Shown here piece after piece: positions 46,405-62,287 of a DNA stretch of 64,000 nt (its first letter is position 1; each line of letters starts with the position of its first letter). The stretch comes from Escherichia phage vB_EcoM-LTH01. Location: the sequence record PP430345. One strand, written 5' to 3'. The notes beneath the pieces are model-generated. The model was not told where the DNA came from. It worked only from the letters and a program-made list of their open reading frames with translations, and made no database searches. The position numbers were made by a program, and so were the translations under genes.

Positions 46405-46582
46405 TATAGAGATCAGTGAGAACATTGCTGGTGGGTATTCTCTTCTGGTATGTAATCGTGAAGGTGGTGAGATTGTTCACGGCTATAAGGTTGGTGGGAT
46501 GGACACTGTAGAGTCATTCACTGTTCCTTTGGACGTATTACTGGAAGCAATCAAGAATAACACCTACGATACTGAAGAGTGA
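46388..46582 (+). CDS. hypothetical protein
   Basis: ORF track; AGGAG RBS. Confidence 0.4.
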   Translation: MMKVVDIEISENIAGGYSLLVCNREGGEIVHGYKVGGMDTVESFTVPLDVLLEAIKNNTYDTEE

Positions 46583-46586
46583 TGCT

Positions 46587-46958
46587 ATGACGACAGAGAA
46601 GAAGCCTTTTGACAAGACGGCCTTTGTTTTTAATACGCCAGTTGAAAAACTTGAAGAATGTTTGTTGACATGCAATGAAGAGTTGAGTAGACTGCTCACT
46701 ATTCCGAAACCGGACCCTTGGGTACAGGATCGTATCGACGATCTGTCTTATTGGTTGGGTATTTGGGAGCTACAGCTTCCTGACGCTAAGAGACGGAAGA
46801 TGACAACCGTTCCTATGAGTGCGATAGAAAGAGTCGTGCTTGGGCTGTATGAGAAGCCAGAGGAGCCTAAAAAGGCTTGGACCAAACCGAAAAAGAAAGC
46901 ACCACCAAAGGTGGAAAAGGAGAAGAAACGTGTCACAAAAAAGAAAAAGTCTGTCTGA
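46587..46958 (+). CDS. hypothetical protein with Lys-rich C-terminus
   Basis: ORF track. Confidence 0.45.
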   Translation: MTTEKKPFDKTAFVFNTPVEKLEECLLTCNEELSRLLTIPKPDPWVQDRIDDLSYWLGIWELQLPDAKRRKMTTVPMSAIERVVLGLYEKPEEPKKAWTKPKKKAPPKVEKEKKRVTKKKKSV

Positions 46959-46977
46959 GAAATGGCTTAGTAACGGA

Positions 46978-47331
46978 ATGTCAAACCAGTGGATTGATTC
47001 TGGATTGGCAACCTGCTTGAAAAAGCCAAACAAGACGCTCATCGAAGAAGAACCAAAAGATGAAGTTTTCGAATCTCCGAATGGAAGTGTTTGGATTGTG
47101 GCTGTCGATTACAGTGGACGGGTAACCGTCCTTAAAGCACCAAATATTCATCCTGCATTGCTTGACGAGGGTCCTGAAGCGGAGTATATTGGTCTTCCAC
47201 CTGATTCAGATTCTGGCCCTGGTGTTTACCGTTGGACGTGTAGTTATCATGAAAGTAAGGATCGAGAATCTAATCTTGTGGACGGTTTTGAGTTTCATGT
47301 GGAGAAAGAAGAGGTTCTTTTCTCTGTTTAG
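46978..47331 (+). CDS. hypothetical protein
   Basis: ORF-track frame 46840-47331 trimmed to first ATG past upstream stop. Confidence 0.35.
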   Translation: MSNQWIDSGLATCLKKPNKTLIEEEPKDEVFESPNGSVWIVAVDYSGRVTVLKAPNIHPALLDEGPEAEYIGLPPDSDSGPGVYRWTCSYHESKDRESNLVDGFEFHVEKEEVLFSV

Positions 47332-47340
47332 GAGGAAACA

Positions 47341-47562
47341 ATGAGGATAAGTAAGAAGACTCATCCGTTTTATTTCACCAATGTCTATATGGGTGGGGAA
47401 CTGAAGAAATCCAGCTTTGATGCTTGGTATCGAGGGATCAAAGCATTCGCATTTCTCCGTCGGAACATTGGTGGCATCATTAAAAAGAATGATCAGTTCT
47501 TTAAAGAGAATCCTGATTATGTTGAAGGTGCTCTTTGTGGAAAACTAAAGGAGACTAAATGA
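47341..47562 (+). CDS. hypothetical protein
   Basis: ORF track; GGAGG RBS. Confidence 0.45.
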   Translation: MRISKKTHPFYFTNVYMGGELKKSSFDAWYRGIKAFAFLRRNIGGIIKKNDQFFKENPDYVEGALCGKLKETK

Positions 47563-47894
47563 AATATCGGTTCAATGGCTACAAAACTAAATTTACCTCT
47601 CTTAAGTTTGTTGTTGGTAAGGTATATGATTTCAAAGATCGAGTTTTTGAAGTTGCTAATGAAGATGGGATCATGCTATCGGGTAGCGACGAGAATGGTA
47701 CAACCGGAGTGATCGTATTTTTTAAGGACTATGATTTCGAAGTTGTTGGGGAGGGAAGTCCTGAGATACGGTATATTGTTAGTGGCAAGAATGTAACTAA
47801 AGAGGTCTTTGAAGAGGTTAAAAAATCCCTAGAAGATCTTGACAAGATTGGGTTTGGTCTGGCAAAATACACATTAGAAATCAAAGCAAACTAA
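47559..47894 (+). CDS. hypothetical protein
   Basis: ORF track; ATGA overlap. Confidence 0.45.
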   Translation: MKYRFNGYKTKFTSLKFVVGKVYDFKDRVFEVANEDGIMLSGSDENGTTGVIVFFKDYDFEVVGEGSPEIRYIVSGKNVTKEVFEEVKKSLEDLDKIGFGLAKYTLEIKAN

Positions 47895-47900
47895 GGAGAA

Positions 47901-49271
47901 GTGATGAGCGTAACTAAGATTATCGAACAACTGGCAGCAACCGGATCAACAAAAGAAAAAGAAGCGATCTTACGTAGTCATGCGGATAACGATGGCCTGC
48001 GTGAAGTATTTCGGGTAGCATATAGCAAAGAGTTAAACTTCTTTGTTCGCAGTTTTAAGGTTGATCCTGCAACTTTCCACCAAGGAAGCCGTAATCTGCA
48101 AGAGAGTATTGATCTTATCGTCAACGATGTTGCAAGCCGTATGTACACTGGGCATGAAGCTCGTGATGTTCTCACGAATGCCGTTCAACTGTGTGAAGAA
48201 CCCGAAACCCTGATAAAGATCATCAACCGCGATCTTGAGTGTGGTATCCAGACAACTCTGACCAACAAGGTTTGGAAGGACCTGATTACAGAGCCTCCTT
48301 ACCAGAGCTATACTCTTTTCAAAGAGGATCTCCTTCGTAATTTCAACTATGAGGGTGCTTTCTCCGACGAGAAGATGGACGGACTTTATGCAGACATTAT
48401 GGTTTGGCCTGAGCAGGTCATTTATCGTTCACGATCAGGGAAAGAGCTTAATTTCCGGTGTATTACTTCACTTGAGCAAAACCTGAAAGAAAAAGCCAAT
48501 TCTGATGGTCCTTTTGTTATGCACGGGGAAGGTTTAGTTATTGACCTGTCATACCCGCACGGGGTTCAACCACGAGAGATCGGTAACGGATATCTTAACC
48601 AAGATCCTGAAAACATTGATCCTAATCTGGTACGTTTGGTTGTTTGGGATGTTGTTTCTATGGACGAGTATATCGCACGTAAATCCAAGAAAAAATATAA
48701 AGACCGTCGTAAGCAGGTTGAAAATATTGTCAACTATGTTGATGAGTCTTCTCATTTCCAGATGATCCGTGGTCGTCAGATAGGCAGTCTTAAAGAGGCT
48801 ATTGACCACTTTATCGAAATGCGTTTGCAGAAGAAAGAGGGTACGGTTCTTAAAGAAGCGAATATGCCTTGGGGAGATAACAAGACTAAGAAAGGGATCA
48901 AACTTAAAAATGAGTTCGATGTTGATCTTGAGGTTGTGGCGACAACGCCTCACAAGAAGAAGCCTGGGCTTATTGGATCTCTGGTCTGCCGGACTCGTGA
49001 TGGACTTCTTGAAGTTGGTGCTGGGTCTGGACTTACTGATGCGCTTCGTAAAAAGCCGAGTGAGTATTTCATTGGGCAGATTATTACGATCAAGGCTAAT
49101 GACATTACTGATGCGGAGAATAAAGATCTGAAATCGCTGTTTTTGCCACGTTTAAATTATAAGTTTGTTGAACTTCGCTTTGATAAGAGCGTAGCCAACA
49201 GCCTGGAAGAAGTGATCGAAGCATCGAACTCTCTTCTGGATCTTCTTCGTAAAATTGCAGAGGAGGTTTAA
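47901..49271 (+). CDS. ATP-dependent DNA ligase
   Basis: Adenylation motif I KxDG present as EKMDGLYADI; 456 aa; AAGGAGAAG RBS. Confidence 0.65.
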   Translation: MMSVTKIIEQLAATGSTKEKEAILRSHADNDGLREVFRVAYSKELNFFVRSFKVDPATFHQGSRNLQESIDLIVNDVASRMYTGHEARDVLTNAVQLCEEPETLIKIINRDLECGIQTTLTNKVWKDLITEPPYQSYTLFKEDLLRNFNYEGAFSDEKMDGLYADIMVWPEQVIYRSRSGKELNFRCITSLEQNLKEKANSDGPFVMHGEGLVIDLSYPHGVQPREIGNGYLNQDPENIDPNLVRLVVWDVVSMDEYIARKSKKKYKDRRKQVENIVNYVDESSHFQMIRGRQIGSLKEAIDHFIEMRLQKKEGTVLKEANMPWGDNKTKKGIKLKNEFDVDLEVVATTPHKKKPGLIGSLVCRTRDGLLEVGAGSGLTDALRKKPSEYFIGQIITIKANDITDAENKDLKSLFLPRLNYKFVELRFDKSVANSLEEVIEASNSLLDLLRKIAEEV

Positions 49272-49273
49272 TA

Positions 49274-49735
49274 GTGGAAGCTTTAATTATCGCTGTTGTG
49301 GGGATTACACTTTACCTTTCCGTAATTTTGGGCGTTCCCGTGTTGCTTACTCGTAAGCCAGCAGGTAAGATCTTGAAGTTGATTCGTGAAGGATCTTCTC
49401 GGTTTGAGGTACATTCTGGAGTTTTTGTTCCTGAGGGCCATGAAGATCCTTGTGAGGATAATGATGATCTTTGGTATGTTGATTATACAATTGTTGATAC
49501 GGTCACAGGTAAGGTTACTTACATTGAAAAGGTTTGTGGTATTATCTCCGATAGCCTTTTCGTAAATGGCGATCTGTTCTGGATGAATGATTATGAAGGT
49601 ACACGACTTTACCACACCTGTCGTCGAATCGTTAAGCGACGTAATAAGGCTTCAAAAAAGGACAAACGATCTAAGTTCGAGATCGAAAAGGATGAAGCAC
49701 GTAAAGTTGCACTAGAAACTTATAAAGACTGTTGA
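49274..49735 (+). CDS. membrane-anchored hypothetical protein
   Basis: N-terminal hydrophobic helix; basic C-terminus. Confidence 0.4.
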   Translation: MEALIIAVVGITLYLSVILGVPVLLTRKPAGKILKLIREGSSRFEVHSGVFVPEGHEDPCEDNDDLWYVDYTIVDTVTGKVTYIEKVCGIISDSLFVNGDLFWMNDYEGTRLYHTCRRIVKRRNKASKKDKRSKFEIEKDEARKVALETYKDC

Positions 49736-49788
49736 CAATGATAAGGGGCCATTATACATGACCCCAAGTTAAACGAAAGGAGATTAAA

Positions 49789-50526
49789 TTGAAATACAAT
49801 GAATTGAGTACTGATCAAAAAACCTTTATTTCCGAGATGATTGATGTTAAGGGCAATAGCTTCTTTCGGGAAGCAGCAGAGCGAGTAAAAAATTGGAATT
49901 TTGTTGCTCGTGGTTTTCATGACTTCTCTGAAGATGTTTCAAAATTCCAAAAAACTCTTGTTATGGAAGAGTACAATGAACTTTATGATCTTGGTTTAAC
50001 TAAAAAGAATCGTAAGGAAATCATAGATGCACTTTGCGACTTGTTTGTAGTTGGATCATATTACAACTTCTTGAAAGGTGGTTCTGAAAACATCTGTCCT
50101 GCTGACAATGTTGGTACGTATAATCTGACTTCGCTTTATCGAACTCTTGATCAATTTATCGAGAGTGACAATACAAACGGGATCGTTATGGCGGTTGTTG
50201 CAATCATGCAGAACTCCAACTTTAATGCTCATCGTGCTTTAAATGAGGTTTTGGATTCAAATGATTCCAAGATCCCAACCGTGAAAGAATTTACAGAAGG
50301 TTTCTACAAGACGTATTACTTTTTTGCAGAAGCTGATTTTGATCTTGATGCCATGATGCGTTTGGAAGCAGAACAGATTGAACTGCGTAACCGTAACCGT
50401 TATCATGGTGTGAAGGGAAGTATCGTAAAAGGTGGTGATGGTATGGATCGAGTAGTATTTAAAGATAAGAACGGCAAGATCATGAAGCCGATCACTTATT
50501 TTGAAGCAAACCTAGAGGGAATGTAA
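49789..50526 (+). CDS. hypothetical protein, possibly MazG-like NTP pyrophosphohydrolase
   Basis: EEYNELYD and EIIDALCDLFVV resemble the EExxE..D motif pair of all-alpha NTP-PPases; weak. Confidence 0.3.
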   Translation: MKYNELSTDQKTFISEMIDVKGNSFFREAAERVKNWNFVARGFHDFSEDVSKFQKTLVMEEYNELYDLGLTKKNRKEIIDALCDLFVVGSYYNFLKGGSENICPADNVGTYNLTSLYRTLDQFIESDNTNGIVMAVVAIMQNSNFNAHRALNEVLDSNDSKIPTVKEFTEGFYKTYYFFAEADFDLDAMMRLEAEQIELRNRNRYHGVKGSIVKGGDGMDRVVFKDKNGKIMKPITYFEANLEGM

Positions 50527-50529
50527 TTA

Positions 50530-50706
50530 ATGCCGTTGTATTCTTACAAATGTGAAAAATGTGGTGAAGTTTTCGATCAAAATAGAAAGATCGCAGAACG
50601 TGAAAATGCTCCTTGCAAGTGTGGAGAGATTGCAGTAAAATGTTTGTCTGCTCCACGAGGAATTAAAAACGGTTATTGTGACCAGGGTAAAATGTTTGTA
50701 CGATAG
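50530..50706 (+). CDS. small zinc-ribbon protein (FmdB-like), 58 aa, absent from ORF track
   Basis: MPLYSYKCEKCGEVF...APCKCGE: two CxxC pairs with typical N-terminus; reading frame checked to TAG at 50704-50706. Confidence 0.5.
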   Translation: MPLYSYKCEKCGEVFDQNRKIAERENAPCKCGEIAVKCLSAPRGIKNGYCDQGKMFVR

Positions 50707-50714
50707 GGGGAATT

Positions 50715-51059
50715 ATGAATCAAGAAAAAGATGTTGAAAAACCTGGCTTACCTGTGTATGATGGTTCTCAGACTAAAATTTCTTTTGATGGTTTAGTTAT
50801 TACGGGTCTTGCAAGTGGTAAAAAATATGCTCGTCGTCCAAACGGTTATCATGAGATCTATGTCAGTGCATTAAGTCCTTTTGTCCGTCAGTTCCAAATT
50901 GGACTAAAAGGTAATTTAACCTTGAAGATCCATACGGGTTATGAAACATTTGCAACGTGTACTTTACCTTGTGAAACTGTAGCTCTGCTTGTGTCAGAGA
51001 TCAGTGATGAAATCCCAGTCTTTCAGGTTGTTTTTAAAGAACTTAAAAATCCTGCTTGA
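50715..51059 (+). CDS. hypothetical protein
   Basis: ORF track; GGGGGA RBS. Confidence 0.45.
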   Translation: MNQEKDVEKPGLPVYDGSQTKISFDGLVITGLASGKKYARRPNGYHEIYVSALSPFVRQFQIGLKGNLTLKIHTGYETFATCTLPCETVALLVSEISDEIPVFQVVFKELKNPA

Positions 51060-51144
51060 CATAAGATATTGAATGGGGTATTCTTACCCCATCGAAGCAA
51101 AGAAGTTAACTTACTATTTAAACATTAAAGAGGAGAAATACAAA

Positions 51145-51456
51145 ATGGCTAAATCTAAAACTGACCTGATCACTACCCTGCCTTCTGACCTGGAAGTTCG
51201 TAAGCGTCTGGCTAACATTGTTCAGGAAGGTGTTGAAGCTGTTCGTCGTCAGAAAGATGCTGCTGAAGATCTGAAAAGCATCCTGGCGATCACTAAAGAA
51301 GACCTGAACATCGACCCTAAATTCCTACGTACCCTGATCAACGGTGAATATGATAAGCAAGATGCAGCAGAGAAGAAACGTGCAGCGCTTGAAAGCCAGA
51401 TTGAACAACTGAACGAACTTGATATCTTGATGGGCCGTGAAGTTGGTGAAGAATAA
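51145..51456 (+). CDS. hypothetical protein (probably highly expressed)
   Basis: ORF-track frame from 51073; ATG 51145 preferred because of strong RBS AAAGAGGAG. Confidence 0.45.
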   Translation: MAKSKTDLITTLPSDLEVRKRLANIVQEGVEAVRRQKDAAEDLKSILAITKEDLNIDPKFLRTLINGEYDKQDAAEKKRAALESQIEQLNELDILMGREVGEE

Positions 51457-51496
51457 TATAAAGTTAATATCTTAAACTTCTATAAGGAGAAATTCT

Positions 51497-51718
51497 GTGA
51501 ATATCAAAGAAGTTAATCCAGGGCAGACAGTTAAGTTCAACCCACTGGGTAATTATGAGGATCGCTATAATTTGTACGGTGTTCAAGTTGGTGATACAGG
51601 TGTTGTTGAATTCGTTGATGAAGAATGTGAATATGTCACTGTTGCATTCACACGTCAGGACGGTGTTATCGTTGATGGTTTCTACGCAGAAGCTGAAGAT
51701 TTAGAACTCGTAGCTTAA
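51497..51718 (+). CDS. hypothetical protein
   Basis: ORF track; AAGGAGA RBS; followed by terminator. Confidence 0.45.
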   Translation: MNIKEVNPGQTVKFNPLGNYEDRYNLYGVQVGDTGVVEFVDEECEYVTVAFTRQDGVIVDGFYAEAEDLELVA

Positions 51719-51726
51719 GTAACGAT

Positions 51727-51750
51727 CGGGCCACATTAGTGTGGCCCTTA
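51727..51750 (+). terminator. intrinsic terminator-like hairpin (GGGCCACA-TTAG-TGTGGCCC)
   Basis: Perfect 8-bp stem followed by TTATAAT. Confidence 0.45.
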
Positions 51751-51781
51751 TAATGAAAAATACAAAAAAGGAGATACAAAT

Positions 51782-52024
51782 ATGAATATTAATTTTAACG
51801 ACGCAACTTACGAAAAACTGAAATACCTGGCTACTCTGGAAGGTCGATCAGTTGCAGCGTATATCTCCCAAAAGATGGATGAGCTTACAGGTCAACTGGT
51901 AAATGTTGAATATTCACTGAATGATATTCCAGAAGGTACGCCTCTTGCTCATATGGATCTAACTCCAAAGCCACGAATCGTAGATCGTGACACTGATGAA
52001 CAAGATGGTTACGCAAATTGGTAA
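51782..52024 (+). CDS. possible ribbon-helix-helix DNA-binding protein
   Basis: N-terminal NDATYEKLKYLATLEGRSVAAYISQKM resembles RHH strand-helix-helix pattern; AAGGAGA RBS. Confidence 0.35.
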   Translation: MNINFNDATYEKLKYLATLEGRSVAAYISQKMDELTGQLVNVEYSLNDIPEGTPLAHMDLTPKPRIVDRDTDEQDGYANW

Positions 52025-52033
52025 AAATTTTTA

Positions 52034-52060
52034 AGCCGCCCTTCGGGGCGGTTTTTCTTT
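52034..52060 (+). terminator. rho-independent terminator (CCGCCC-TTCG-GGGCGG + T-tract)
   Basis: GC stem with TTCG tetraloop followed by TTTTTCTTT. Confidence 0.7.
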
Positions 52061-52069
52061 ATCTATCTC

Positions 52070-52097
52070 TTGACACCTGCCTCCAGTTCTGTATAAT
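52070..52097 (+). promoter_or_regulatory. strong sigma70-consensus promoter (TTGACA-16-TATAAT)
   Basis: Perfect -35 at 52070-52075 and perfect -10 at 52092-52097, directly after terminator. Confidence 0.6.
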
Positions 52098-52126
52098 ACC
52101 TATATCAACCAACAACAGGAGATAAA

Positions 52127-52315
52127 ATGAATATTAAACTTACAAAAGAAATGATTGCCGTGTTTATGCAAATTTCGTCAGTTCGTGATGGGATGAGTAA
52201 AGAATCTAAGAGTATTAAGTTACCTGAAGTTGACTCTCTCGTAACACTTCTTGAAAATGTTGGAGCACTTATTCTTCGTGAAATGACCAAGCAAGATTCT
52301 ACTACAGAGGGGTGA
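52127..52315 (+). CDS. hypothetical protein
   Basis: ORF track; AGGAGA RBS. Confidence 0.45.
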
Positions 52316-52319
52316 TCAA

Positions 52320-52784
52320 TTGAAAACTTTTAAAGAACGTATGGAATTGTTAGATAAAGCTTTGTCTCGTGAAACTCCAGAGAGTTTGTTTGAAAAACTA
52401 CAGTCATACGGAAATGCTGATTACTCTTTCGAAGATATGATGGATGAGATTCCTGAGATCTGTTGGCAAACATGTTATTGGAATAACGATCAAAAAGTTC
52501 AACGTACTATTGTATGTGCAGCTAATCGGTTTAAATTGAAAGATGGTGGAACTCTGATTATCCCTGGATCTCGTCATTACTCTAAGGATATGGCAGAAGT
52601 GCTTGATGTGGTGGGGCCACAATTAGTATCTCAGCAAGTTTGTGGAGACGATCAAGGCTTTATCGACCAATACGGTAATTATTGGAATCGTGAAGAAGCA
52701 ATGATTATTGCAACTTATGCCGGACAGGTACGTATCGAACGTGGTGGAAGTGAGAAAGAACTTTACTCGGAGGACCTTTACTGA
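52320..52784 (+). CDS. hypothetical protein (TTG start)
   Basis: ORF track; GAGGGG RBS. Confidence 0.4.
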
Positions 52785-53056
52785 TGAACACTAAACAGCT
52801 TACTATTGAAGCTTTGCAGCTTAAGATAAAACAAATCGAGTATCTTAACCAGATGATGAAAGAGGGTTGGGGTACGTATACTAATCAGCCTGCCTGGGAG
52901 GCTTTAGGTCATCCATACCTGAACGATGCTTGTAATGGTAATATTCCTCGTGATGGGTTGAAACCTTTCTTACGGGATATGTACATTAAGGTTAACGAAG
53001 AGATCATTGATTCCCTTTACTATCAGATCAGGAAACTCGAAAATGAGAGTAATTGA
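52784..53056 (+). CDS. hypothetical protein
   Basis: ORF track; ATG overlaps upstream stop. Confidence 0.45.
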   Translation: MNTKQLTIEALQLKIKQIEYLNQMMKEGWGTYTNQPAWEALGHPYLNDACNGNIPRDGLKPFLRDMYIKVNEEIIDSLYYQIRKLENESN

Positions 53057-53243
53057 TTCTAAAAGTGATTATTTCAATTCTTTAAATGATAAGGACAAGA
53101 CTAAGATTCGTCACTTCATCGTAGAGATGGGATACACCAACTCTGAAGATTTGAAAGAGCATATTCTCGAATGTTACGTAGCTAAGAAATTTTCTTTGAC
53201 AAGTAAGTGTTTAAATGAGATTATACAGCACTACACGGCTTAA
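53043..53243 (+). CDS. hypothetical protein
   Basis: ORF-track frame 53007-53243 trimmed to ATG 53043. Confidence 0.35.
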   Translation: MRVIDSKSDYFNSLNDKDKTKIRHFIVEMGYTNSEDLKEHILECYVAKKFSLTSKCLNEIIQHYTA

Positions 53244-53256
53244 GGGGGATAGTTGA

Positions 53257-53589
53257 ATGGGTAAATTAGTTGTTTTGGAAGTTCGGGCAGCAGACTTAGC
53301 AAAGGCAGTTGGTTTCTTTAAATTTGAAGATTCTGAATTTCGTGAGCGATGGGGACTTAACTTACCATCCAAAATCTGTGGTCTTTTTAAGGCAAGTCAG
53401 ATCGAAGACCTGATTATTAAAAAGATTGTTAATCTTGATGGTGTGGAATTTAATAATATTGTCGTTTTCGACGAAGACTTTGATTGGTCTGCCTATTGCA
53501 GCCTTTCAGATTGGATTGCTAAATTCCCGATGGCAGAAAACTGTTCTGTTTCAATTCCTGGATCTTTACTGGAGATTGTGAATGTATAA
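53257..53589 (+). CDS. hypothetical protein
   Basis: ORF track; GGGGGA RBS. Confidence 0.45.
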   Translation: MGKLVVLEVRAADLAKAVGFFKFEDSEFRERWGLNLPSKICGLFKASQIEDLIIKKIVNLDGVEFNNIVVFDEDFDWSAYCSLSDWIAKFPMAENCSVSIPGSLLEIVNV

Positions 53590-53818
53590 TCAAGATATCG
53601 AAACGATTAAAGAAAGGCTTAAGTTGATGACAGCTTCGCCCAATGTAACGACTAAGGATGTTGATCTTATTCGTCAAACACTTCATGTAATAAATTCATT
53701 AGAAGAGGAGATCAAGTCTCTCAATGTTGATGTAGGTTGTTACAAACATGCTTATGTTGCGTTTGCTGACATTACGAAGATTATGGCTCGGGAGTTAGAA
53801 AAATCGAAACATTCTTAG
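53582..53818 (+). CDS. hypothetical protein
   Basis: ORF track; overlaps upstream by 8 nt. Confidence 0.4.
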   Translation: MYNQDIETIKERLKLMTASPNVTTKDVDLIRQTLHVINSLEEEIKSLNVDVGCYKHAYVAFADITKIMARELEKSKHS

Positions 53819-53954
53819 GGGTTATCGTTTTAATACTGGCATTCTACCTCTTCACAAGAGCGTGCTGGATTGGATTTTTCAGTACGCCTGACGGATTACT
53901 TTCGGTAGTGCTATTCTTGATTTCAATATCTGCATTGGATCTATAGGAGTTTTT

Positions 53955-54506
53955 ATGCGAGTCACTGATAAACATGTGTTCTTTTATTCTTATCGCGATG
54001 TTTTTAGTAATCATTACCAGGAGATCTCTCCATTCTCAAACTTCGACCAGAAGATGAAGGGGGTTTATTTCCACACTGGTGAGCATTACATGATGTATGA
54101 AAAGGCTATGCTTTTCGGTGACAAAGCTTCAGCGGAAAGGATCATTAAGGCCGTAACGCCGCAAGGTGCTAAAACGCTCGGTCGTAAGGTAAAGAATTTT
54201 GATCAGGCAGTTTGGGATGAAAATAAATTTAACATTGTGACCCGTTTAGTGTATAGTCGTATGTGTGATAATGGTAATCTCCGTGAACTTGCGGTAGGTT
54301 ACCGTAAAAAGGGTTTGAAGTTTGTAGAAGCCTCGCCGAGAGATCGTATATGGGGGATCGGTATGGACGAGAATCATCCTATGGTAGATGATGAAAGTTT
54401 CTGGTATGGAGAGAATCTTTTGGGGAAAGCCTGGGACGAAGCAACGGATATGATTATCGATGTTTCGGAAGCTATGAATATGATTGGTAAATGTGAGGCA
54501 TACTAA
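53955..54506 (+). CDS. NADAR-family (YbiA-like) hydrolase; candidate DNA ADP-ribosylation reversal enzyme
   Basis: N-terminal FFYSYRDVFSNHY, HYMMYEKAMLFGD, GRKVKNFDQAVWDE and ASPRDRIWGIGMDE match the conserved blocks of NADAR/DUF1768 as I recall them. Confidence 0.65.
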   Translation: MRVTDKHVFFYSYRDVFSNHYQEISPFSNFDQKMKGVYFHTGEHYMMYEKAMLFGDKASAERIIKAVTPQGAKTLGRKVKNFDQAVWDENKFNIVTRLVYSRMCDNGNLRELAVGYRKKGLKFVEASPRDRIWGIGMDENHPMVDDESFWYGENLLGKAWDEATDMIIDVSEAMNMIGKCEAY

Positions 54507-55010
54507 ATGAAATTAACTATCGAATTAATCCCAAGCACAGCTTGGGACAACAACCTTCGGTCTTACCTTACCCAATCTGGTTGGGACAAAGTTCGTCGAA
54601 AGTGCTATCAAGAAGCAAACTACCACTGTGAGGTTTGTGGAGGTCAAGGTGGAAATGGACGTAAGCATCCATGTGAAGCTCACGAGGTATGGGACTTTGT
54701 TGATGGGGAAGTTGTGTTAAGGGGTGTGATCGCTTTATGTCCTCCTTGCCACGAAGTAAAACATATCGGTCGTGCTCAAGCGACTGGTAACATGACTCGT
54801 GCAATACGACACTTTATGAAAGTTAACGGTGTTGACAAGAAGGCTGCTGAAGAATACATTAGGCAAGCTGCGGCATTGTGGCGAGAAAGAAGTAAGCAAG
54901 AGTGGTCTTTGAATATCGATTATCTGTATGAATACATGGGTAAAGATTTCAAATTCAAGCGACCAGTAAAAGAAGTTAAAGAAGACGAAGATTACGGCGA
55001 AGCATTTTAA
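54507..55010 (+). CDS. HNH-family endonuclease-like protein (possible free-standing homing endonuclease)
   Basis: CEVCG...H...AHEVWDF...CPPCHEVKH has the Cys-pair/His spacing of HNH nucleases; ATGA overlap with NADAR gene. Confidence 0.45.
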   Translation: MKLTIELIPSTAWDNNLRSYLTQSGWDKVRRKCYQEANYHCEVCGGQGGNGRKHPCEAHEVWDFVDGEVVLRGVIALCPPCHEVKHIGRAQATGNMTRAIRHFMKVNGVDKKAAEEYIRQAAALWRERSKQEWSLNIDYLYEYMGKDFKFKRPVKEVKEDEDYGEAF

Positions 55011-55023
55011 TAAGGAGAGGTCT

Positions 55024-56133
55024 ATGGGTTATCCGGTAATTGAAGATTGGTCAGGTATTATCGAAGACAACGTGGTTGTTGCACTTGATCTCGATCAAAC
55101 TTGCTATGTTGCTGCGGCTGGTGCAGAAAAAAGAACGATCATCGCTCGACACAAGGAGACTGGAAGGGAAAAAGAATTTCGCAACAAAACAGAGTTTTGG
55201 GGTCGCCAAAAGAATGTTGTTGGTGGATGGTTAAAAGACCAAAACATTAATATGGAAGCAAAAGCGGTTGCTCGCGGAAAAGAATTTACTCCGTGGACCC
55301 GTGATGATTTCGAGATCATTGAAAAGCAAACTCCAGAACCAGTGGAGAACTGTCTTCACTTATTGAAGATTAAGATCAATGCTATTCTTGAACACGTAGG
55401 ATCAGCAAACGGGCTTGGTGTTTTAGGTGGGAGTGGTAACTTCCGTCTTGCACTCCCGACCCCTGAGATCTATAAGGGTAACCGTGAAGATACTTTACGT
55501 CCTCTGTTGCTTGGGGAGACTCGTCGATATGTTCAGCAGAAGTATGGTGCGATCATTGTGGATGGTATTGAGGCAGATGATTATTTATCGATCCTTGGTT
55601 ACAAAGGTTATTTAAATTATCGAAAGACTGGAAAGTTCAGTCATATTGTGGCATCCTTTGATAAGGATCAGGTTCAGGTTCCTTCTCTGTTGTTTAACAC
55701 GATGCGTGATTCAACAGAGCGTACTTGGAAACATCCTGAACTCTGGTTGATTGATGATTCTATGGGTGAGATCTGGATGGAGTCTGGAAAGGTAAAAGGC
55801 TGGGGTAAGAAATTCTTCGGTTACCAAATGCTATTTGGTGATGCAGCGGATAACGTTAAACCATATCAAACCTTCGAGGGTCTTCGCTTTGGTGAAACAT
55901 CGGCTTTCCAGGTCATCTCCCCTTGTGCAGACGAGAAGAGTATGTGGTTAGCTATTATTGATCAGTATAAGAAGTGGTTTCCTGAGGGTGTTGAATATAC
56001 AGACCACTTAGGGAATCATCGTAAGTTTTCAGCGGGTCAGTGGGCTTCTGTCATTTTCCAGTGTGTTTATATGAAGCGCACAGAAAATGATAAGACAACA
56101 TTATCCTCAACTTTAAAACGGGTAGGTATTTAA
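55024..56133 (+). CDS. putative nuclease (5'-3' exonuclease/FEN-like motif)
   Basis: GAIIVDGIEADDYLSILGY resembles the GxEADD motif of 5' nucleases; N-terminal VVVALDLDQT acidic cluster; weak. Confidence 0.3.
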   Translation: MGYPVIEDWSGIIEDNVVVALDLDQTCYVAAAGAEKRTIIARHKETGREKEFRNKTEFWGRQKNVVGGWLKDQNINMEAKAVARGKEFTPWTRDDFEIIEKQTPEPVENCLHLLKIKINAILEHVGSANGLGVLGGSGNFRLALPTPEIYKGNREDTLRPLLLGETRRYVQQKYGAIIVDGIEADDYLSILGYKGYLNYRKTGKFSHIVASFDKDQVQVPSLLFNTMRDSTERTWKHPELWLIDDSMGEIWMESGKVKGWGKKFFGYQMLFGDAADNVKPYQTFEGLRFGETSAFQVISPCADEKSMWLAIIDQYKKWFPEGVEYTDHLGNHRKFSAGQWASVIFQCVYMKRTENDKTTLSSTLKRVGI

Positions 56134-56444
56134 TGTCAGGCTTTTCTGAGAGTTTTGATGATGTTATGATCGCTGACGAAATTCGTGCAGCACTCGTTCC
56201 TGGCGCAAAGCGCCAGGTCTACAAGATTGAAGAACCTTGGACTATGCTGGAGGAGCCTTGGAGAATTCAATGGTTTGACAAGCGTGTTGATTCTATCTGT
56301 CAGGTCTATGTTGTTGGTGATCCGTTCTACGATGAGAAATATGTAACTTTTATGGTTTACATGGACGGAGAAGTAAAGAACTATGTGTTCTTAATCGACC
56401 AATATCATTATCTTGATAATACCGAAGAAGGGGAATCAGCGTGA
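56133..56444 (+). CDS. hypothetical protein
   Basis: ORF track; translationally coupled. Confidence 0.45.
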   Translation: MSGFSESFDDVMIADEIRAALVPGAKRQVYKIEEPWTMLEEPWRIQWFDKRVDSICQVYVVGDPFYDEKYVTFMVYMDGEVKNYVFLIDQYHYLDNTEEGESA

Positions 56445-57019
56445 AAATTTTATCCATCGATCAGAGTATGGCTTCTTGTGCATGTGTAGTTTTTGACGGT
56501 AATGAACCGATCTTTAAAGAAGTATTGAAAACAACAGGATCTGCAAATGCCAAAGACTGGCAGATTCGTTTTGATAATCCTGTTGAGCAGATGGCATACA
56601 TTTCTCGACACATTGCGGATATTTGTGAGTCTTTCCAGGTCGAGAAGATCGTGCTGGAGTCTTTGAGCTTTGGATCTGCTGGTAATGCCACAAGGGATCT
56701 TGCAGGATTATTTTTCTGTATTCAGTTGACACTACTTCGAGATGGATATAGTATGGACAACATACACACCATTGCACCAACATCTGTTAAATCTTGGGCG
56801 CGAGGTAAATTACCTGGTGAGGAACAAGAGGTGATGAATGCAAAAGGTACGAAGATGGAAAAAATTAAAATGGATAAAGATCAAATGATGAAGGTTTGCG
56901 AGTTGATGGAACCTGGGTTTTTAGCTGGATATTCAAAGACAGGTAAGAACGGCGGGGCTACAGATCTTGCAGATGCCTACTTAATTGGGAGATGCTACCT
57001 TGAACGAAACGGTTATTGA
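56441..57019 (+). CDS. RuvC-like Holliday junction resolvase
   Basis: N-terminal KILSIDQS and C-terminal ATDLADAYLIGRCY resemble RuvC catalytic blocks. Confidence 0.5.
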   Translation: MKILSIDQSMASCACVVFDGNEPIFKEVLKTTGSANAKDWQIRFDNPVEQMAYISRHIADICESFQVEKIVLESLSFGSAGNATRDLAGLFFCIQLTLLRDGYSMDNIHTIAPTSVKSWARGKLPGEEQEVMNAKGTKMEKIKMDKDQMMKVCELMEPGFLAGYSKTGKNGGATDLADAYLIGRCYLERNGY

Positions 57020-57653
57020 ACGCTACGAATCTGAAGAGTTTTACCAGAGTAAGAAATTAGTGATCTGTTGGAATACCCTCGAAAGGGGGGATTTCATTGC
57101 TAAACTAAAGCACACTGCAAATAAGTTGGGGTTTGGTTCTTATCAGAAGGATCGTAGTGGTTACGATATAAACCTGTTTAATGAGCGATCTAAGCTGAAC
57201 ATGCACATTCAGACGATCAGTTCTGCACAGTGGTCTTTTTGGCAAAAAGTCAGAGGTATGTGTTTTGACGAAATCATCATCAGTGGGTATTCTTTTAAGT
57301 CTGTTTCTGATAAAGCTTCACTGAAAGAATTACTTTATTTGACGAAGCAAAAAGGTAATCCGATTTTTGATAATGCTTTAAGGGTTTTTATAAACTCAAG
57401 TCGATCTGAATTCTTTAAGGATTTTGATTCGAACGTTCCATCAGAGTTTAAAAATAATGTTGACAACAGTCTGTTTAGTAATATAAACTTTCCAATGTCA
57501 CTTTATCGCTTCGGAATGGAAGAGTATTTTGAAAACCCTGTTGCACCTACACACGGTGAGTTCTTAATGGCTTTGGCCTTGGAGGGAGTACATGCGAGTA
57601 CCGAGAGTGAGGAAGCGGCGGTCAAAGAGGCCACTATTCACAGCGAAGGATAA
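56985..57653 (+). CDS. hypothetical protein
   Basis: ORF track; 35-nt overlap with upstream gene, start uncertain. Confidence 0.4.
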   Translation: MGDATLNETVIERYESEEFYQSKKLVICWNTLERGDFIAKLKHTANKLGFGSYQKDRSGYDINLFNERSKLNMHIQTISSAQWSFWQKVRGMCFDEIIISGYSFKSVSDKASLKELLYLTKQKGNPIFDNALRVFINSSRSEFFKDFDSNVPSEFKNNVDNSLFSNINFPMSLYRFGMEEYFENPVAPTHGEFLMALALEGVHASTESEEAAVKEATIHSEG

Positions 57654-57696
57654 GGCAACTACACCTATCCGTGTTAAATTGAATAAGGATCTTTGG

Positions 57697-58170
57697 GTGA
57701 GTGGGTCGAAGGAAATAGCAAAATATCGTGATGAAATATTGCTTGACCAACAGGGAGTTTGTGCTATACTAGGTGAAGTTATGGAGAAGCCTTGTTTAGA
57801 CCATGATCACTTTGATGGAAAGGTTAGGGGTGTTATTGGAAGCACCCTGAACCTTTTCGAAGGTGGTGTACAAAAACTTTGGTCTAAACACATGGAAGAT
57901 AAAACAGACTTGACAATGAGTGAAGTTCTACGTAGAATGGCTGACTATCTCGAAAGGGATTACTCTTCAAGAAAGTTTCATGGTGAGATTGTTGCTGACC
58001 TGAAAAAATATTTGAAGAGATTAAAGAAAGAAACAATTGCAATGAACGCTTTATTGAGGTACAATGTAGTTATCGATGATAGTTTGGATAAAGGTGAAAT
58101 GATAACTCTTTATGTGAAAGCGTTTATCGATAAACTTGAGGAGGGTTATCTGTATGAGTCAAGAAGTTGA
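57697..58170 (+). CDS. endonuclease VII-like resolvase (GTG start, 157 aa)
   Basis: CAILGEVMEKPCLDHDHFDGKVRGVIGSTLN matches the EndoVII zinc/HN block; ORF-track start 57592 overlaps previous gene by 62 nt; GTG 57697 follows AAGGA with 7-nt spacer. Confidence 0.6.
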   Translation: MSGSKEIAKYRDEILLDQQGVCAILGEVMEKPCLDHDHFDGKVRGVIGSTLNLFEGGVQKLWSKHMEDKTDLTMSEVLRRMADYLERDYSSRKFHGEIVADLKKYLKRLKKETIAMNALLRYNVVIDDSLDKGEMITLYVKAFIDKLEEGYLYESRS

Positions 58171-58381
58171 CAATAACACCTACGGTTTACCAACCCTGCG
58201 GTTTTATTATCGCAATTGGAAAGGTGATTGTGGTTATCGTACTGTAACTGGTACGCCAGTGATGTGGTATGGTGAATCGCCGTATCATCGTGGCGAACAG
58301 TGGTTTATGAAAGCGTATGATGTAGATAAACAAGATATCCGTGACTTTGCTGTTGCCGATGTAATCGAATTTTTTAAATAA
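58154..58381 (+). CDS. hypothetical protein
   Basis: ORF-track frame from 58136; ATG 58154 after GAGG preferred. Confidence 0.4.
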   Translation: MSQEVDNNTYGLPTLRFYYRNWKGDCGYRTVTGTPVMWYGESPYHRGEQWFMKAYDVDKQDIRDFAVADVIEFFK

Positions 58382-58391
58382 GGAGTTTTTA

Positions 58392-59486
58392 GTGACTAAT
58401 AAAGTAACTTTTACTGTTGAACAAGTTCTGCAACTGATGAAACACGGTTTGTCTCAGCGCGAAGTAGCTCGCCAATTGGGTAAAGAGTCTCAGGAATCTA
58501 CGGTTCGTAATATGATCCGTCGTGAAATTCAAAAGAATGATGTTTCAAGTGTTAAGGAACTCCTTGAAATCACCCCAGCTTATGAAGATTACGAAAACTA
58601 TGCAGAATATATGCAGCAGAAAGAGTCAGGTGGGGAGTCTGTCGCTAAGATTGAAAAAGATTTCATTGAAAAGATCAAAGAGCAGAACCCAGGTGCTAAA
58701 GTTTTCCTTGGTGACATTGAAACATCTCCTTCTATAGCATATTCGTTTGGACGATTTAAACAGTTCATTGCACCGAAGCAGGTAATTATGGAACCGTACA
58801 TGCTGACATTCGCTGGTAAGTGGCTGCACAACCCATCGATCTTCAGCCGGAAGCTGACTGACTATCCAGAAGAGTTTGCACGAGATCACCAGTCAGATCG
58901 CAAGTTGATCGAAGACCTGTGGAAAGTTCTGGACGAATGTGATATCTTTATCGCACATAATGCTCGCTTTGACCGTGGTTGGGCAAATCAGCGTTTCGCA
59001 TATTACGGTATGCAACCGCCAAGCCCCTACATCACGATCGATACATTGGCTGCACTGAAAGAAGCTTTCTCTCTTCCTTCAAATGCACTTGAAGCAGCAT
59101 GTAACTATTTTGAACTTGATAGTCGTAAGCTGTCGCATGAAGGTTTCAGTCTGTGGCGACGTTGTGTTGAAGGTGACCCAACCGCATTTGAAGAGATGGA
59201 AGAATATAACATTGGTGATATTCCAACGCTGGAAGAACTGTATCTGACTGTACGACCTTTCATGCGGAAACATCCGAACATTGCATTGTTCCACAAAGAT
59301 CAATCAACTATGCGTTGTGTTCGTTGTGGTAGTGACGACTTAGTTATTGAGGAAGGTAAGTCAGCAGTAACGTTCTTGTCTAAGTTCAAGGTGTATCGTT
59401 GCCAGGAATGTGGTTCTTGTGCACGAGATCGTCAGAATGTTCGCGAGAAGGCAGCGATGAAGAAAACGCTGGCAAACATTCTGTAA
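58392..59486 (+). CDS. DEDD-type 3'-5' exonuclease with N-terminal HTH-like region
   Basis: Exo I-like FLGDIETSP and Exo III-like HNARFDRGW; C-terminal CVRCG...CQECG zinc-ribbon-like. Confidence 0.55.
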   Translation: MTNKVTFTVEQVLQLMKHGLSQREVARQLGKESQESTVRNMIRREIQKNDVSSVKELLEITPAYEDYENYAEYMQQKESGGESVAKIEKDFIEKIKEQNPGAKVFLGDIETSPSIAYSFGRFKQFIAPKQVIMEPYMLTFAGKWLHNPSIFSRKLTDYPEEFARDHQSDRKLIEDLWKVLDECDIFIAHNARFDRGWANQRFAYYGMQPPSPYITIDTLAALKEAFSLPSNALEAACNYFELDSRKLSHEGFSLWRRCVEGDPTAFEEMEEYNIGDIPTLEELYLTVRPFMRKHPNIALFHKDQSTMRCVRCGSDDLVIEEGKSAVTFLSKFKVYRCQECGSCARDRQNVREKAAMKKTLANIL

Positions 59487-59495
59487 TTTTATTTA

Positions 59496-59521
59496 ACCGC
59501 CCTTCGGGGCGGTTTTTTTTA
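59496..59521 (+). terminator. rho-independent terminator (near-copy of the 52034 terminator)
   Basis: ACCGCCC-TTCG-GGGCGGT followed by TTTTTTTTATT. Confidence 0.7.
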
Positions 59522-59545
59522 TTGTGAAAATGAGAGGAGATTAGT

Positions 59546-60184
59546 ATGAAATTCATTAATTTAAATGGTCCTGCTTTTTCTGGTAAAGATGCTCTTGCTA
59601 AAGAGATTGCAGAGTTAGTTACGGTAGATAATAACGTAGGTATTCATGTTGAGTTTAAAGGTTCCCTTATCGATCTAGCTATTCGTATTGCAGGTATTAA
59701 TCGTGAACTGTGGGATGCACTTTACCACCGCGATTATAAAGAAGTACCTCAACCATATTTTAATGTTGCAGGTAAACAAGTGTCCCCACGTAACTGGCTG
59801 ATCCATATCTCTGAGAATGTTGCGAAGCCTCTCTTCGGAGAAGAATACTTTGGTGTTGCTCTTGCCAAGCGTGTTAAAGATATTGCGAAAGGTATGGAAA
59901 TGAATGGTTATACCTGTACGTTTATTAGCTCTGATGGTGGATTTGTTCATGAAAGTGTTCCGGTAGTGAAGGCGGTAAATGGCGATTACACATTGATCCG
60001 TCTGCACCGTACTGATCCACGAACTGGTAATAAATTAACTTTTGAAGGCGATTCTCGTAATTATATTTACTCTGAGAATTTTCCTGAAAGTGCACGACCT
60101 AGAGATTTCGACGTTGAAAACGTTAATGGTAAGCTAACTGAAACTGCAAAATTAATTATCAAACTCTCAGAGGGGAAAGAGTAA
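59546..60184 (+). CDS. P-loop kinase, deoxynucleoside monophosphate kinase-like
   Basis: N-terminus MKFINLNGPAFSGKDALAKEI (P-loop) resembles T4 dNMP kinase N-terminus as I recall it; GAGAGGAGA RBS. Confidence 0.45.
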   Translation: MKFINLNGPAFSGKDALAKEIAELVTVDNNVGIHVEFKGSLIDLAIRIAGINRELWDALYHRDYKEVPQPYFNVAGKQVSPRNWLIHISENVAKPLFGEEYFGVALAKRVKDIAKGMEMNGYTCTFISSDGGFVHESVPVVKAVNGDYTLIRLHRTDPRTGNKLTFEGDSRNYIYSENFPESARPRDFDVENVNGKLTETAKLIIKLSEGKE

Positions 60185-60790
60185 ATGAAAAAAGCGATCA
60201 TTGTGGATGTTGACTTAACTATCGTTGATTCTGGATGGCCTTGGTTGCACTGGATGGAAAGCATCTATAATATGGAGGCTGATTCTGACCTTATGGAAAA
60301 GGACATTAGCGAGAATGGGTATTTTGATTACAATCTTTCTCGGTACTTTCCTGATCGCTGTAAGAAGGCTATCCCTCCATATGATTATTGGGAAGACCCT
60401 TTCTTGTATGATAAGATGTTCCCTATTGCGGGAGCAGTAGAGGCAATCAATAAGTTACATGCCGCAGGATTCCCTATTCGGTTTGTGTCTTATTGCAAGA
60501 AAGGTCATTTTAGTAGTAAAGTTCGTTTCTTGAAGCGACACTTCCCTAACCTGGATCTTGAAAATGGAACAGACGGGTGTGGTTTTTATGCTACAAAGTA
60601 CAAGGCTGGAGTTTCGGGTGATTACATCATTGATGATCGTAATAAATTTTTGAATCAATTTAGTGACAAGGTAGTAAAAATCAAGTATGATACACCCTTC
60701 AGTCAAGACGAAGAAGAGATCGGGTGTTACGACTTGGTAACTAGCGATTGGGCATCAATTGCTGAATTTATTTTGGAGAGAGAATCTTGA
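60185..60790 (+). CDS. HAD-superfamily hydrolase, likely 5'(3')-deoxyribonucleotidase
   Basis: HAD motif I in AIIVDVDLTIVDS; start overlaps stop of kinase gene. Confidence 0.45.
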   Translation: MKKAIIVDVDLTIVDSGWPWLHWMESIYNMEADSDLMEKDISENGYFDYNLSRYFPDRCKKAIPPYDYWEDPFLYDKMFPIAGAVEAINKLHAAGFPIRFVSYCKKGHFSSKVRFLKRHFPNLDLENGTDGCGFYATKYKAGVSGDYIIDDRNKFLNQFSDKVVKIKYDTPFSQDEEEIGCYDLVTSDWASIAEFILERES

Positions 60791-60972
60791 GATGTGGTAA
60801 AGGAAGATGGGTAGTTAGGGAAGGTGATTATGTAGAGATCCTTTCTAAAGAAAAGGGAAGCCTTTTGGCTTCCTTCAAAGTAAAAAGCGACATGTGCAAA
60901 GAAATGTTTGACATGTATCTTCACATTATGTACGATATTAGCGTTGATTACAAAATCAGGAAAATAAAATGA
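60787..60972 (+). CDS. hypothetical protein
   Basis: ORF track. Confidence 0.35.
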   Translation: MRCGKGRWVVREGDYVEILSKEKGSLLASFKVKSDMCKEMFDMYLHIMYDISVDYKIRKIK

Positions 60973-61175
60973 ATATAGTATTTTTCGAAGGTGAAGATTG
61001 GGAAGGTATTTATGTTGACGGTAAGTTAGTGTTAGAAGGCCACAGGGTAGACATTAAGGAATTTATTTCTTACTTGGCAAAGAAAAGACTTGCTAACTTA
61101 GAGATTGTAAGGGAAAATGATTTGAGTAGTCCAATTGAAGATTACTTGCCACAATTTGTTGAAGATTTAAATTAA
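60969..61175 (+). CDS. hypothetical protein
   Basis: ORF track. Confidence 0.4.
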   Translation: MNIVFFEGEDWEGIYVDGKLVLEGHRVDIKEFISYLAKKRLANLEIVRENDLSSPIEDYLPQFVEDLN

Positions 61176-61191
61176 TAGAGAGGAGATTTGA

Positions 61192-62220
61192 ATGTCCATG
61201 ATTGAAGCCCGTATTATTGCAGATTCTGTTGGCTATCGTAGTAAAGCTCGTATCACCACGTTTGAATTGACCTATCCTCGATTCATTCACTCAGAACTTA
61301 TGACACACCGACTGTTTAGTAGAAATGCAATGTCTTCTCGTGCAGTGCCGATCAAGACAATGGTTAAACTGATCCGTGAAAATATGGCAATGCCTGTTCG
61401 ATTTGGTGCTAACCAACCTGGTATGCAGGATAAAGGAACAGAACATGATGGTAAAGTATGGTATGATTGGGTGGAAGATACAAGTGGCGTGTGTCATGAA
61501 CTGTACTGTACCGGACGAGAAGCTTGGGCGAAGGCTGCGGAAAATGCCTGTGAATGGGCAGAACGTTTCGAGGCAGCGGGGTTCCATAAGCAGATTGCTA
61601 ACCGATTGATCGAGCCGTTCCAGATGATGAAGACTATCGTTACAGCAACAGAATTTGAAAACTTCTTCTGGTTACGTGTTGATGCAGACGCAGACCCAAC
61701 GATCGAAGTATTGGCTAAGAAAATGCACGAAGCTTATAAAGCTTCTACTCCAGAATGGTTACAACCTGGTGTGTGGCATACGCCTTACGTAGACCATTGT
61801 TTCGACTCTGGACCTTTGGGTGATGGGCATATTTTTGCAGGGTATTGTGTACAGGATGAAGATGGAAATCACATTATGCTGTCCGAAGAAGAGGCTTTGT
61901 CTATCTCTTCCTCTTGTTGTGGACAGGTAAGTTATCGTCGTCTTAACAATACGAAAGATAAGGCTTTGGATATTTATGCCAAGCTCGTATCCGGTAAAAA
62001 GGTCCACGCTTCTCCGTTCGAGCATCAGGCGAAGGAGATAGAAGAGACATTTGAACCCGATGAAGTACAAGACGGTTACAATATGGTAAATGTCCCTTGG
62101 TGTTCAGCATCTTGGGAAGAGGGTATTACTCACGTAGATCGTGACGGTAACTTCTGGAGTGGAAACCTGAAAGGGTTTGTTCAACATCGTCAGTTAATTC
62201 CTGGTCATGTTGCAAAATAA
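61192..62220 (+). CDS. ThyX-like (flavin-dependent thymidylate synthase fold) protein, divergent, with C-terminal extension
   Basis: FELTYPRFIHSELMTHRLFSRNAMSSR aligns with the ThyX block F..K.PIFV.RQ..RHR.......S, but first Arg of RHR is Thr; 342 aa is ~100 aa longer than typical ThyX. Confidence 0.45.
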   Translation: MSMIEARIIADSVGYRSKARITTFELTYPRFIHSELMTHRLFSRNAMSSRAVPIKTMVKLIRENMAMPVRFGANQPGMQDKGTEHDGKVWYDWVEDTSGVCHELYCTGREAWAKAAENACEWAERFEAAGFHKQIANRLIEPFQMMKTIVTATEFENFFWLRVDADADPTIEVLAKKMHEAYKASTPEWLQPGVWHTPYVDHCFDSGPLGDGHIFAGYCVQDEDGNHIMLSEEEALSISSSCCGQVSYRRLNNTKDKALDIYAKLVSGKKVHASPFEHQAKEIEETFEPDEVQDGYNMVNVPWCSASWEEGITHVDRDGNFWSGNLKGFVQHRQLIPGHVAK

Positions 62221-62287
62221 GTGTTGACATTGGTTAGTTAATTTTATATTATTATCGGCGCTGGGGCATATTGCCCCTCTTTTTAAA

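Follow-up and report, generated by a model that had tools for sequence, protein, structure and literature searches.

An orphan NADAR-domain protein in the replication arm of a Vequintavirinae-like Escherichia coli phage: a candidate antagonist of DarT1-like DNA ADP-ribosylation

Phage-encoded orphan NADAR proteins, termed AdfN, free DNA of ADP-ribose and counteract DarTG1 (Johannesman et al., 2025; PMC11825919). AdfN-T4 (gp30.3), AdfN-Bas32 and AdfN-Bas60 were assayed in that study and DarTG2 was unaffected by all of them. AdfN-Bas32 and AdfN-Bas60 relieved E. coli of DarT1 toxicity and allowed RB69, T5 and Bas25 to plate again, AdfN-Bas60 was effective without other phage factors, and truncation of the C-terminal helix lowered the activity of AdfN-T4 (PMC11825919). 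For T4 on DarTG1 hosts, adfN is conditionally essential (bioRxiv 2025.11.20.689424). At the biochemical level, four NADAR subtypes all removed ADP-ribosylation from guanine (G-ADPr) in vitro (Cihlova et al., 2024; PMC11125620; also PMC12945103). Here we describe a NADAR-domain gene at positions 53955-54506 of a 64,000-nucleotide stretch of Escherichia phage vB_EcoM-LTH01 (PP430345), referred to below as the window, and compare its product with these proteins. The source is a Vequintavirinae-like E. coli myophage, and the protein probably serves counter-defence against DarT1-like DNA ADP-ribosylation.

The 183-amino-acid product was matched by the Pfam NADAR profile PF08719 (DUF1768) with E = 4.3e-37 and 128.3 bits against a gathering score of 35.1, the match spanning positions 10-158 of the 163-position model (149/163), and by PHROG family phrog_1017 with E = 5e-47. 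By these profile scores, assignment of the protein to the NADAR family is far beyond chance. The first-pass annotation of this DNA had called the protein a NADAR-family hydrolase from three blocks (FFYSYRDVFSNHY, HYMMYEKAMLFGD and ASPRDRIWGIGMDE), all of which are present in the product, and had proposed the PF08719 search and a structure prediction as checks; both agree with the call. AlphaFold2, supplied with a 61-sequence alignment, gave the NADAR alpha+beta fold (predicted local distance difference test, pLDDT, 96.9; predicted template modelling score, pTM, 0.91). The core beta-strand begins at residue 2, an N-terminal extension is absent in the alignment and in the model, and a long C-terminal helix is predicted at residues 155-182. 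Among solved structures, only PnNADAR of Phytophthora nicotianae (8BAU, 7e-14) and E. coli YbiA (2B3W, 5e-5) were matched by sequence. In a family-profile search PnNADAR was preferred over YbiA by 17 orders of magnitude (1.5e-37 versus 6e-20), and the DarG1 structure 8BAT was matched neither by the sequence nor by the profile search.

In 8BAU, the residues that contact ADP-ribose or are required for hydrolysis are E43, K50, K75, R79, Y84, W89, R93, E125, D130 and W133 (Schuller et al., 2023; PMC11543638). They align with E43, K50, K73, R77, F82, W87, K91, E125, D130 and W133 of the window's protein, and eight of these ten (all except F82 and K91) are invariant in the alignment of 61 homologs. 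Judged by this alignment, the catalytic and ADP-ribose-binding residues of the protein are intact. PnNADAR K50 and its counterpart K95 in the NADAR of E. coli C7 coordinate phosphate and are required for efficient hydrolysis (PMC11543638). The gene, its ribosome binding site and the principal active-site codons are located as follows.

53955-54506, + strand: NADAR-domain protein gene, candidate orphan AdfN-like ADP-ribosylglycohydrolase, 183 amino acids, ATG-initiated
53945-53949, + strand: Shine-Dalgarno sequence AGGAG, 5 nucleotides before the ATG at 53955, as read from the letters
54081-54083, + strand: Glu43 codon, equivalent to PnNADAR E43, which coordinates the distal ribose (8BAU alignment; invariant among the 61 homologs; PMC11543638)
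54102-54104, + strand: Lys50 codon, equivalent to PnNADAR K50 and E. coli C7 NADAR K95 (8BAU alignment; invariant among the 61 homologs)
54327-54344, + strand: Glu125 to Asp130 codons in the VEASPRD motif, Glu125 being equivalent to the catalytic E125 and Asp130 to D130 of PnNADAR
54351-54353, + strand: Trp133 codon, equivalent to PnNADAR W133

The residue at the catalytic position differs between NADAR classes: Glu is found in the general and YbiA-like class, Asp in DarT1-associated NADARs and His in T4-type phage NADARs (PMC11543638). With Glu at residue 125, the protein falls into the Glu-type general class, nearest to PnNADAR, and not into the DarG1 class.

Two defence-related models were also matched. 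The PADLOC candidate-defence model PDC-M42C recognised the protein with E = 6.6e-25, and the NCBIfam model DS32_2 ('NADAR family anti-phage protein') gave a weak match (30 bits; cutoff 240). Both bacterial defence and phages evidently make use of NADAR domains.

The start of the gene at 53955 is supported by an in-frame TGA at 53889-53891, by the AGGAG before the ATG and by homologs from other genera, whose N-termini read MRITDKHVFF or MKVTDKHVFF. A 214-amino-acid form with an upstream GTG start, as annotated in phage A5-4, was rejected, since in the window it is broken by the same TGA. The closest public relatives are UPEC06, A5-4, A7_1, A73 and W70, with approximately 94% nucleotide identity over 52000-58200. 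The UPEC06 counterpart of the protein is 98.9% identical and labelled 'swarming motility protein ybiA'. Compared with this ortholog, the gene carries 20 synonymous and 2 nonsynonymous changes; the ratio of nonsynonymous to synonymous substitution rates (dN/dS) of 0.021 is the lowest among five neighbouring genes (0.05 to 0.09). The NADAR gene is under strong purifying selection, and a reading of the open reading frame (ORF) as a decaying gene is excluded by this value.

The direct neighbours of the gene are a 78-amino-acid ORF and an HNH endonuclease gene; darT1 is not adjacent. Because the ORFs scanned on the + strand arm (45117 to 63042) contained no domain of ADP-ribosyltransferase (ART), macro, Nudix or Sir2 type, the NADAR protein is regarded as a stand-alone orphan. 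In the annotation of UPEC06, where most genes read 'hypothetical', there is likewise no gene of any of these types.

To place the protein among experimentally tested NADARs, we compared it with AdfN-Bas60, AdfN-T4 and YbiA. Bas60-62 are phi92-like phages (PMC8594841), and we identified AdfN-Bas60 as bas60_0111 of Escherichia phage PaulScherrer (Justusliebigvirus). It shares 38% identity with the window's protein over 170 amino acids (E = 5e-30), and YbiA shares 26% (E = 4e-10). In a neighbour-joining distance tree, a weak method for clade relationships, the sequences of the window's phage group, Certrevirus and Seunavirus formed a clade in 198 of 200 bootstrap replicates, with YbiA outside it. 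Union of this clade with the Bas60/Phapecoctavirus clade was recovered in 60/200 replicates and is unsupported. Orthology to AdfN-Bas60 was considered and is not supported: the two were sisters in the first neighbour-joining tree, yet with only this bootstrap value, and their genomic positions differ.

The gene order around the NADAR gene was compared across related phages, with percent identities given relative to the proteins of the window; RuvC-like stands for a RuvC-like resolvase and EndoVII for an endonuclease VII.

Seunavirus (GAP31): NADAR 48.5%, HNH 59%, exonuclease 66%, RuvC-like 42%, EndoVII 42%; order as in the window
Certrevirus (CB7): NADAR 54%, HNH 59%, exonuclease 74%, RuvC-like 66%, EndoVII 75%; order kept
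Vequintavirus, rV5-like (FFH2): no NADAR, HNH 48%, exonuclease 54%, RuvC-like 38%, EndoVII 46%; slot without NADAR
Stephanstirmvirinae (Phapecoctavirus, Justusliebigvirus): NADAR 38%; HNH and exonuclease not adjacent, other neighbourhood

The NADAR gene is thus syntenic in three Vequintavirinae lineages, i.e. the window's phage group, Certrevirus and Seunavirus. No rV5-like phage was among the tblastn matches obtained with the NADAR protein; the Escherichia matches comprised the five close relatives and Stephanstirmvirinae. As the nucleases keep the same order in FFH2, which has no NADAR, they represent a conserved replication/recombination core, and from these alignments the NADAR gene is a variable element at the edge of this core in Vequintavirinae. 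The same comparison does not support the proposal of the first-pass annotation that the gene is part of a DNA-damage-reversal island, although the neighbours it had named (an HNH nuclease and recombination/repair nucleases) are present according to PHROG and Pfam. A mobile or functional cassette formed by NADAR and HNH was rejected as well: the HNH homolog occurs in FFH2 without NADAR (48% identity), in CB7 a further HNH gene lies between the two, and A5-4 carries an additional ORF between HNH and exonuclease.

Additional genes, in most cases for HNH endonucleases, recur at the junction between NADAR and exonuclease genes (54507-55023 in the window; L010 3499-5001; L012 3308-4305). This hot-spot holds one HNH gene in the window, three in CB7, where they intervene between NADAR and exonuclease, and an additional 164-amino-acid ORF after HNH in A5-4. 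In GenBank, phage NADAR genes are labelled inconsistently and in part wrongly (H21, H99, H102, H107, H110, H131); we encountered 'swarming motility protein', 'GTP cyclohydrolase II', 'DNA methyltransferase', 'putative YbiA-like N-glycosidase' and 'hypothetical protein'.

The data establish the family and fold of the NADAR protein, the integrity of its active site, its orphan status, and the purifying selection and conserved synteny of the gene. Reversal of DNA ADP-ribosylation is the best-supported reading of its function because three other phage orphan NADARs do so against DarTG1. The protein is very probably an active NADAR glycohydrolase. It is likely to remove G-ADPr in vitro, and counter-defence against DarT1-like DNA ADP-ribosylation appears a moderately probable selected role. 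The gene would be transcribed early from a host-type promoter, within the DNA replication/recombination arm. As a stand-alone NADAR, its product would cut the N-glycosidic bond that joins ADP-ribose to the guanine N2 amino group of phage DNA and would remove the replication-blocking adducts that DarT1-type toxins set as part of the DarTG1 abortive-infection system of the host. Phage replication could then proceed in hosts with DarT1-type toxins, and the protein would act as an orphan antitoxin mimic of the AdfN class. Three elements of this model are inferred: G-ADPr on DNA as the substrate, when the gene is expressed, and counter-defence in vivo. The first-pass annotation had attributed the guanine modification to DarT-type toxins in general. 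This holds for DarT1 of DarTG1 and not for DarT2, which modifies thymidine; no assayed NADAR removed that modification, which is reversed by a macrodomain (PMC11825919, PMC11125620).

Several points weigh against a counter-defence role of this kind, and some of them speak for other functions. YbiA and T4 gp30.3 removed G-ADPr in vitro and did not rescue cells from DarT1 outside infection (PMC11125620), so that activity in vitro is no guarantee of protection in vivo. AdfN-T4 and the window's protein show no detectable similarity in BLASTP (E = 0.2), the union with the Bas60 clade is unsupported, as described above, and the literature searched contains no assayed member of the NADAR clade to which the protein belongs. 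That host RNA polymerase transcribes the gene early is a prediction from consensus matches. Moreover, Iyer et al. (2022) proposed that most phage NADARs act on soluble, mainly low-molecular-weight ADP-ribose (ADPr) derivatives and not on macromolecular adducts (PMC9503650). The protein could accordingly be an active NADAR with another target, such as ADP-ribosylated RNA, cytidine-ADPr (C-ADPr), soluble immune signals derived from ADPr, or ADPr in complex with an NADase effector. In that case it would be directed against a defence other than DarTG1, or against several at a time. This is a real, if rather improbable, alternative. It agrees with the removal of C-ADPr and RNA G-ADPr by general and YbiA-type NADARs in vitro (PMC12945103, 2026), with membership of the window's protein in the Glu-type general class, and with a phage NADAR that acts on Retron-Eco1 independently of catalysis (Carabias 2024, as cited in PMC11825919). 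On the other hand, all phage NADARs assayed in vivo countered DarTG1, the Glu-type AdfN-Bas60 included, and the gene is sited among DNA-handling genes. A purely binding role is disfavoured by the full conservation of the catalytic residues and the strong purifying selection. It is also conceivable, and in our estimate unlikely, that the clade was acquired independently of AdfN-Bas60 and that its native target is not, or not only, DarT1-modified guanine; the target could then be ADP-ribosylation of RNA or cytidine or, as in Retron-Eco1, an NADase filament charged with ADPr, and counter-defence would be broader than, or different from, that of the published AdfN proteins.

A further point against counter-defence is that the protein exceeds the NCBIfam threshold of TIGR02464, the domain model of an N-glycosidase for riboflavin intermediates (129.8 bits against a cutoff of 73.7). 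This could indicate a YbiA-like housekeeping N-glycosidase acting on reactive intermediates of riboflavin biosynthesis, as existing annotations have it. However, TIGR02464 works at the level of the domain, spans the entire NADAR domain and does not discriminate between subfamilies, so that the match is generic. Identity to YbiA is low, the family profile favours PnNADAR, no riboflavin genes were found nearby among the arm ORFs scanned, and riboflavin damage control would meet no evident need of a lytic phage. Since nearly all phage NADARs were placed outside the YbiA group (Johannesman et al.; PMC11825919) and YbiA itself is active on G-ADPr in vitro (PMC11125620), we consider a housekeeping function very unlikely. 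Equally far-fetched appears an antidote or regulator that curbs self-modification by an ART of the phage encoded elsewhere. The window covers 64 kb of a genome of about 143 kb and the genes of UPEC06 are mostly 'hypothetical', which leaves space for such an enzyme; yet neither the scanned + strand arm ORFs nor the UPEC06 annotation contain an ART domain. Furthermore, the known ARTs of T4 modify proteins, and ADP-ribosylated proteins are not known to be NADAR substrates.

To approach the expression of the NADAR gene, we inspected the region upstream of it for transcription signals and for conserved non-coding sequence.

52033-52054, + strand: strong terminator-like GC-rich hairpin followed by a T-run, with a 9-bp stem including 6 GC pairs, which would close the preceding unit
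52070-52097, + strand: putative early host sigma-70 promoter, TTGACA-16-TATAAT, the only perfect consensus in the 64 kb
53819-53954, + strand: non-coding leader of 136 nucleotides before the NADAR gene, unusually conserved, with 97% identity to UPEC06

A perfect sigma-70 consensus is expected 0.04 times by chance in the window and occurs once, 1.9 kb upstream of the start of the NADAR gene. No terminator-like site was found on the + strand between this promoter and 53955. The interval 52033-52097 looks like a transcription-unit boundary within the replication arm, at the head of which two 11/12 matches to the sigma-70 consensus are located (45053 and 45091). These promoter predictions make plausible the earlier statement that the gene lies in an early region. 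As for the context of expression, the gene is situated just downstream of homologs of arn.1-arn.3, which are flanked by motA and asiA in a T-even phage.

The leader differs from that of UPEC06 at four positions, while synonymous divergence (dS) in the flanking genes amounts to 0.2-0.4; this suggests a constrained regulatory element. Within 53819-53954 there was no sigma-70-like site and no significant Rfam element, and the RNA folding score was not significant (z = -0.9). The annotation of A5-4 treats part of the leader as a protein extension, which the TGA at 53889-53891 excludes for the window.

The NADAR gene is part of a long + strand arm that begins at a divergent intergenic region at about 44.7-45.1 kb. 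Upstream of it this arm contains small ORFs, a DNA ligase gene (47901-49271) and the arn.3, arn.2 and arn.1 homologs (52320-53243). Downstream follow genes for HNH, exonuclease, RuvC-like and EndoVII nucleases, DNA polymerase/exonuclease, 5'(3')-deoxyribonucleotidase and ThyX. The nuclease genes next to NADAR are arranged as follows; a Pfam search with the HNH gene gave no match.

54507-55010, + strand: HNH endonuclease gene that begins directly after the NADAR stop codon (TAA followed by ATG); phrog_5200, E = 3e-70
55024-58170, + strand: block of recombination/replication nucleases comprising exonuclease, a 103-amino-acid ORF, RuvC-like resolvase, a 222-amino-acid ORF and EndoVII (PHROG, Pfam)
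55024-56133, + strand: exonuclease, phrog_107
56441-57019, + strand: RuvC-like resolvase, phrog_159
57592-58170, + strand: EndoVII, PF02945

The ORFs at 52320-53243 are three consecutive homologs of T-even arn.3, arn.2 and arn.1, and in Mosigvirus Shf125875 arn.1-arn.3 are located between motA and asiA. They show approximately 77% nucleotide identity to hundreds of T4-like phages, which points to lateral exchange of genes between phages of the T-even and Vequintavirinae-like groups. The GenBank tag 'anti-restriction nuclease' on these homologs looks like a transfer from the adjacent arn gene. The first 31 amino acids of the 154-amino-acid arn.3-like ORF (52320-52412) match the PADLOC model PD-T4-9_B (E = 9.5e-11), which represents one component of an anti-phage system of bacteria. 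On the - strand, a tRNA cluster was detected at 41235-42780 by ARAGORN (Gln, Gly, Pro, Tyr and Met); Rfam missed the Tyr gene and gave a weak additional tRNA-like match at 42702-42780 (35.8 bits).

The concept of phage NADARs directed against DarTG1 is already published, and includes a phage formerly placed in Vequintavirinae. What is new, as far as alignments and gene order go, is a separate, well-supported and syntenic NADAR clade in three Vequintavirinae lineages, whose phages infect E. coli, Pectobacterium, Salmonella, Cronobacter and Klebsiella. If the proposed role is confirmed, this clade would be a fourth, phylogenetically separate phage lineage with orphan antitoxin-like NADARs against DNA ADP-ribosylation, and labels such as 'swarming motility protein ybiA', 'GTP cyclohydrolase II' and 'YbiA-like N-glycosidase' would be corrected. 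Presence or absence of NADAR might help to predict host range on DarTG1 strains, which is relevant to phage therapy candidates of this group, and rV5-like phages without NADAR offer a natural comparison and control. As the concept is published, the gain is incremental and will not surprise a specialist; the clade is nevertheless a sensible next target.

Compared with the known systems, the window's protein differs from DarG1 (G. lovleyi, 8BAT), which has an N-terminal extension that is lacking here, is paired with an adjacent darT1, and belongs to the NADARs with Asp at the catalytic position (D171 in E. coli C7) in place of Glu125. PnNADAR, a member of the general NADAR family, is eukaryotic and shares about 28-31% identity, and the stretch inserted between its WGIG motif and C-terminal helix is longer. 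E. coli YbiA is encoded by a housekeeping gene that shares a LexA-controlled operon with dinG, and it does not protect cells from DarT1. AdfN-T4 is, like the candidate described here, a phage orphan NADAR, and acts against DarTG1 as well; T4-type NADARs have His at the catalytic position, and full activity of AdfN-T4 depends on the T-even infection context. It is encoded downstream of the DNA ligase gene, and we regard the positional parallel (ligase gene 30 followed by 30.3/adfN in T4) as a coincidence between NADARs without detectable similarity. AdfN-Bas60 is encoded in a different neighbourhood, after an FtsH-like/ATPase gene and a large ORF and not beside an exonuclease block, has an extra insertion around residues 68-78, and carries Tyr where the window's protein and PnNADAR have Trp133. 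Like AdfN-Bas60, the window's protein is a phage-encoded, stand-alone NADAR of 183 amino acids with a catalytic Glu and no adjacent ART.
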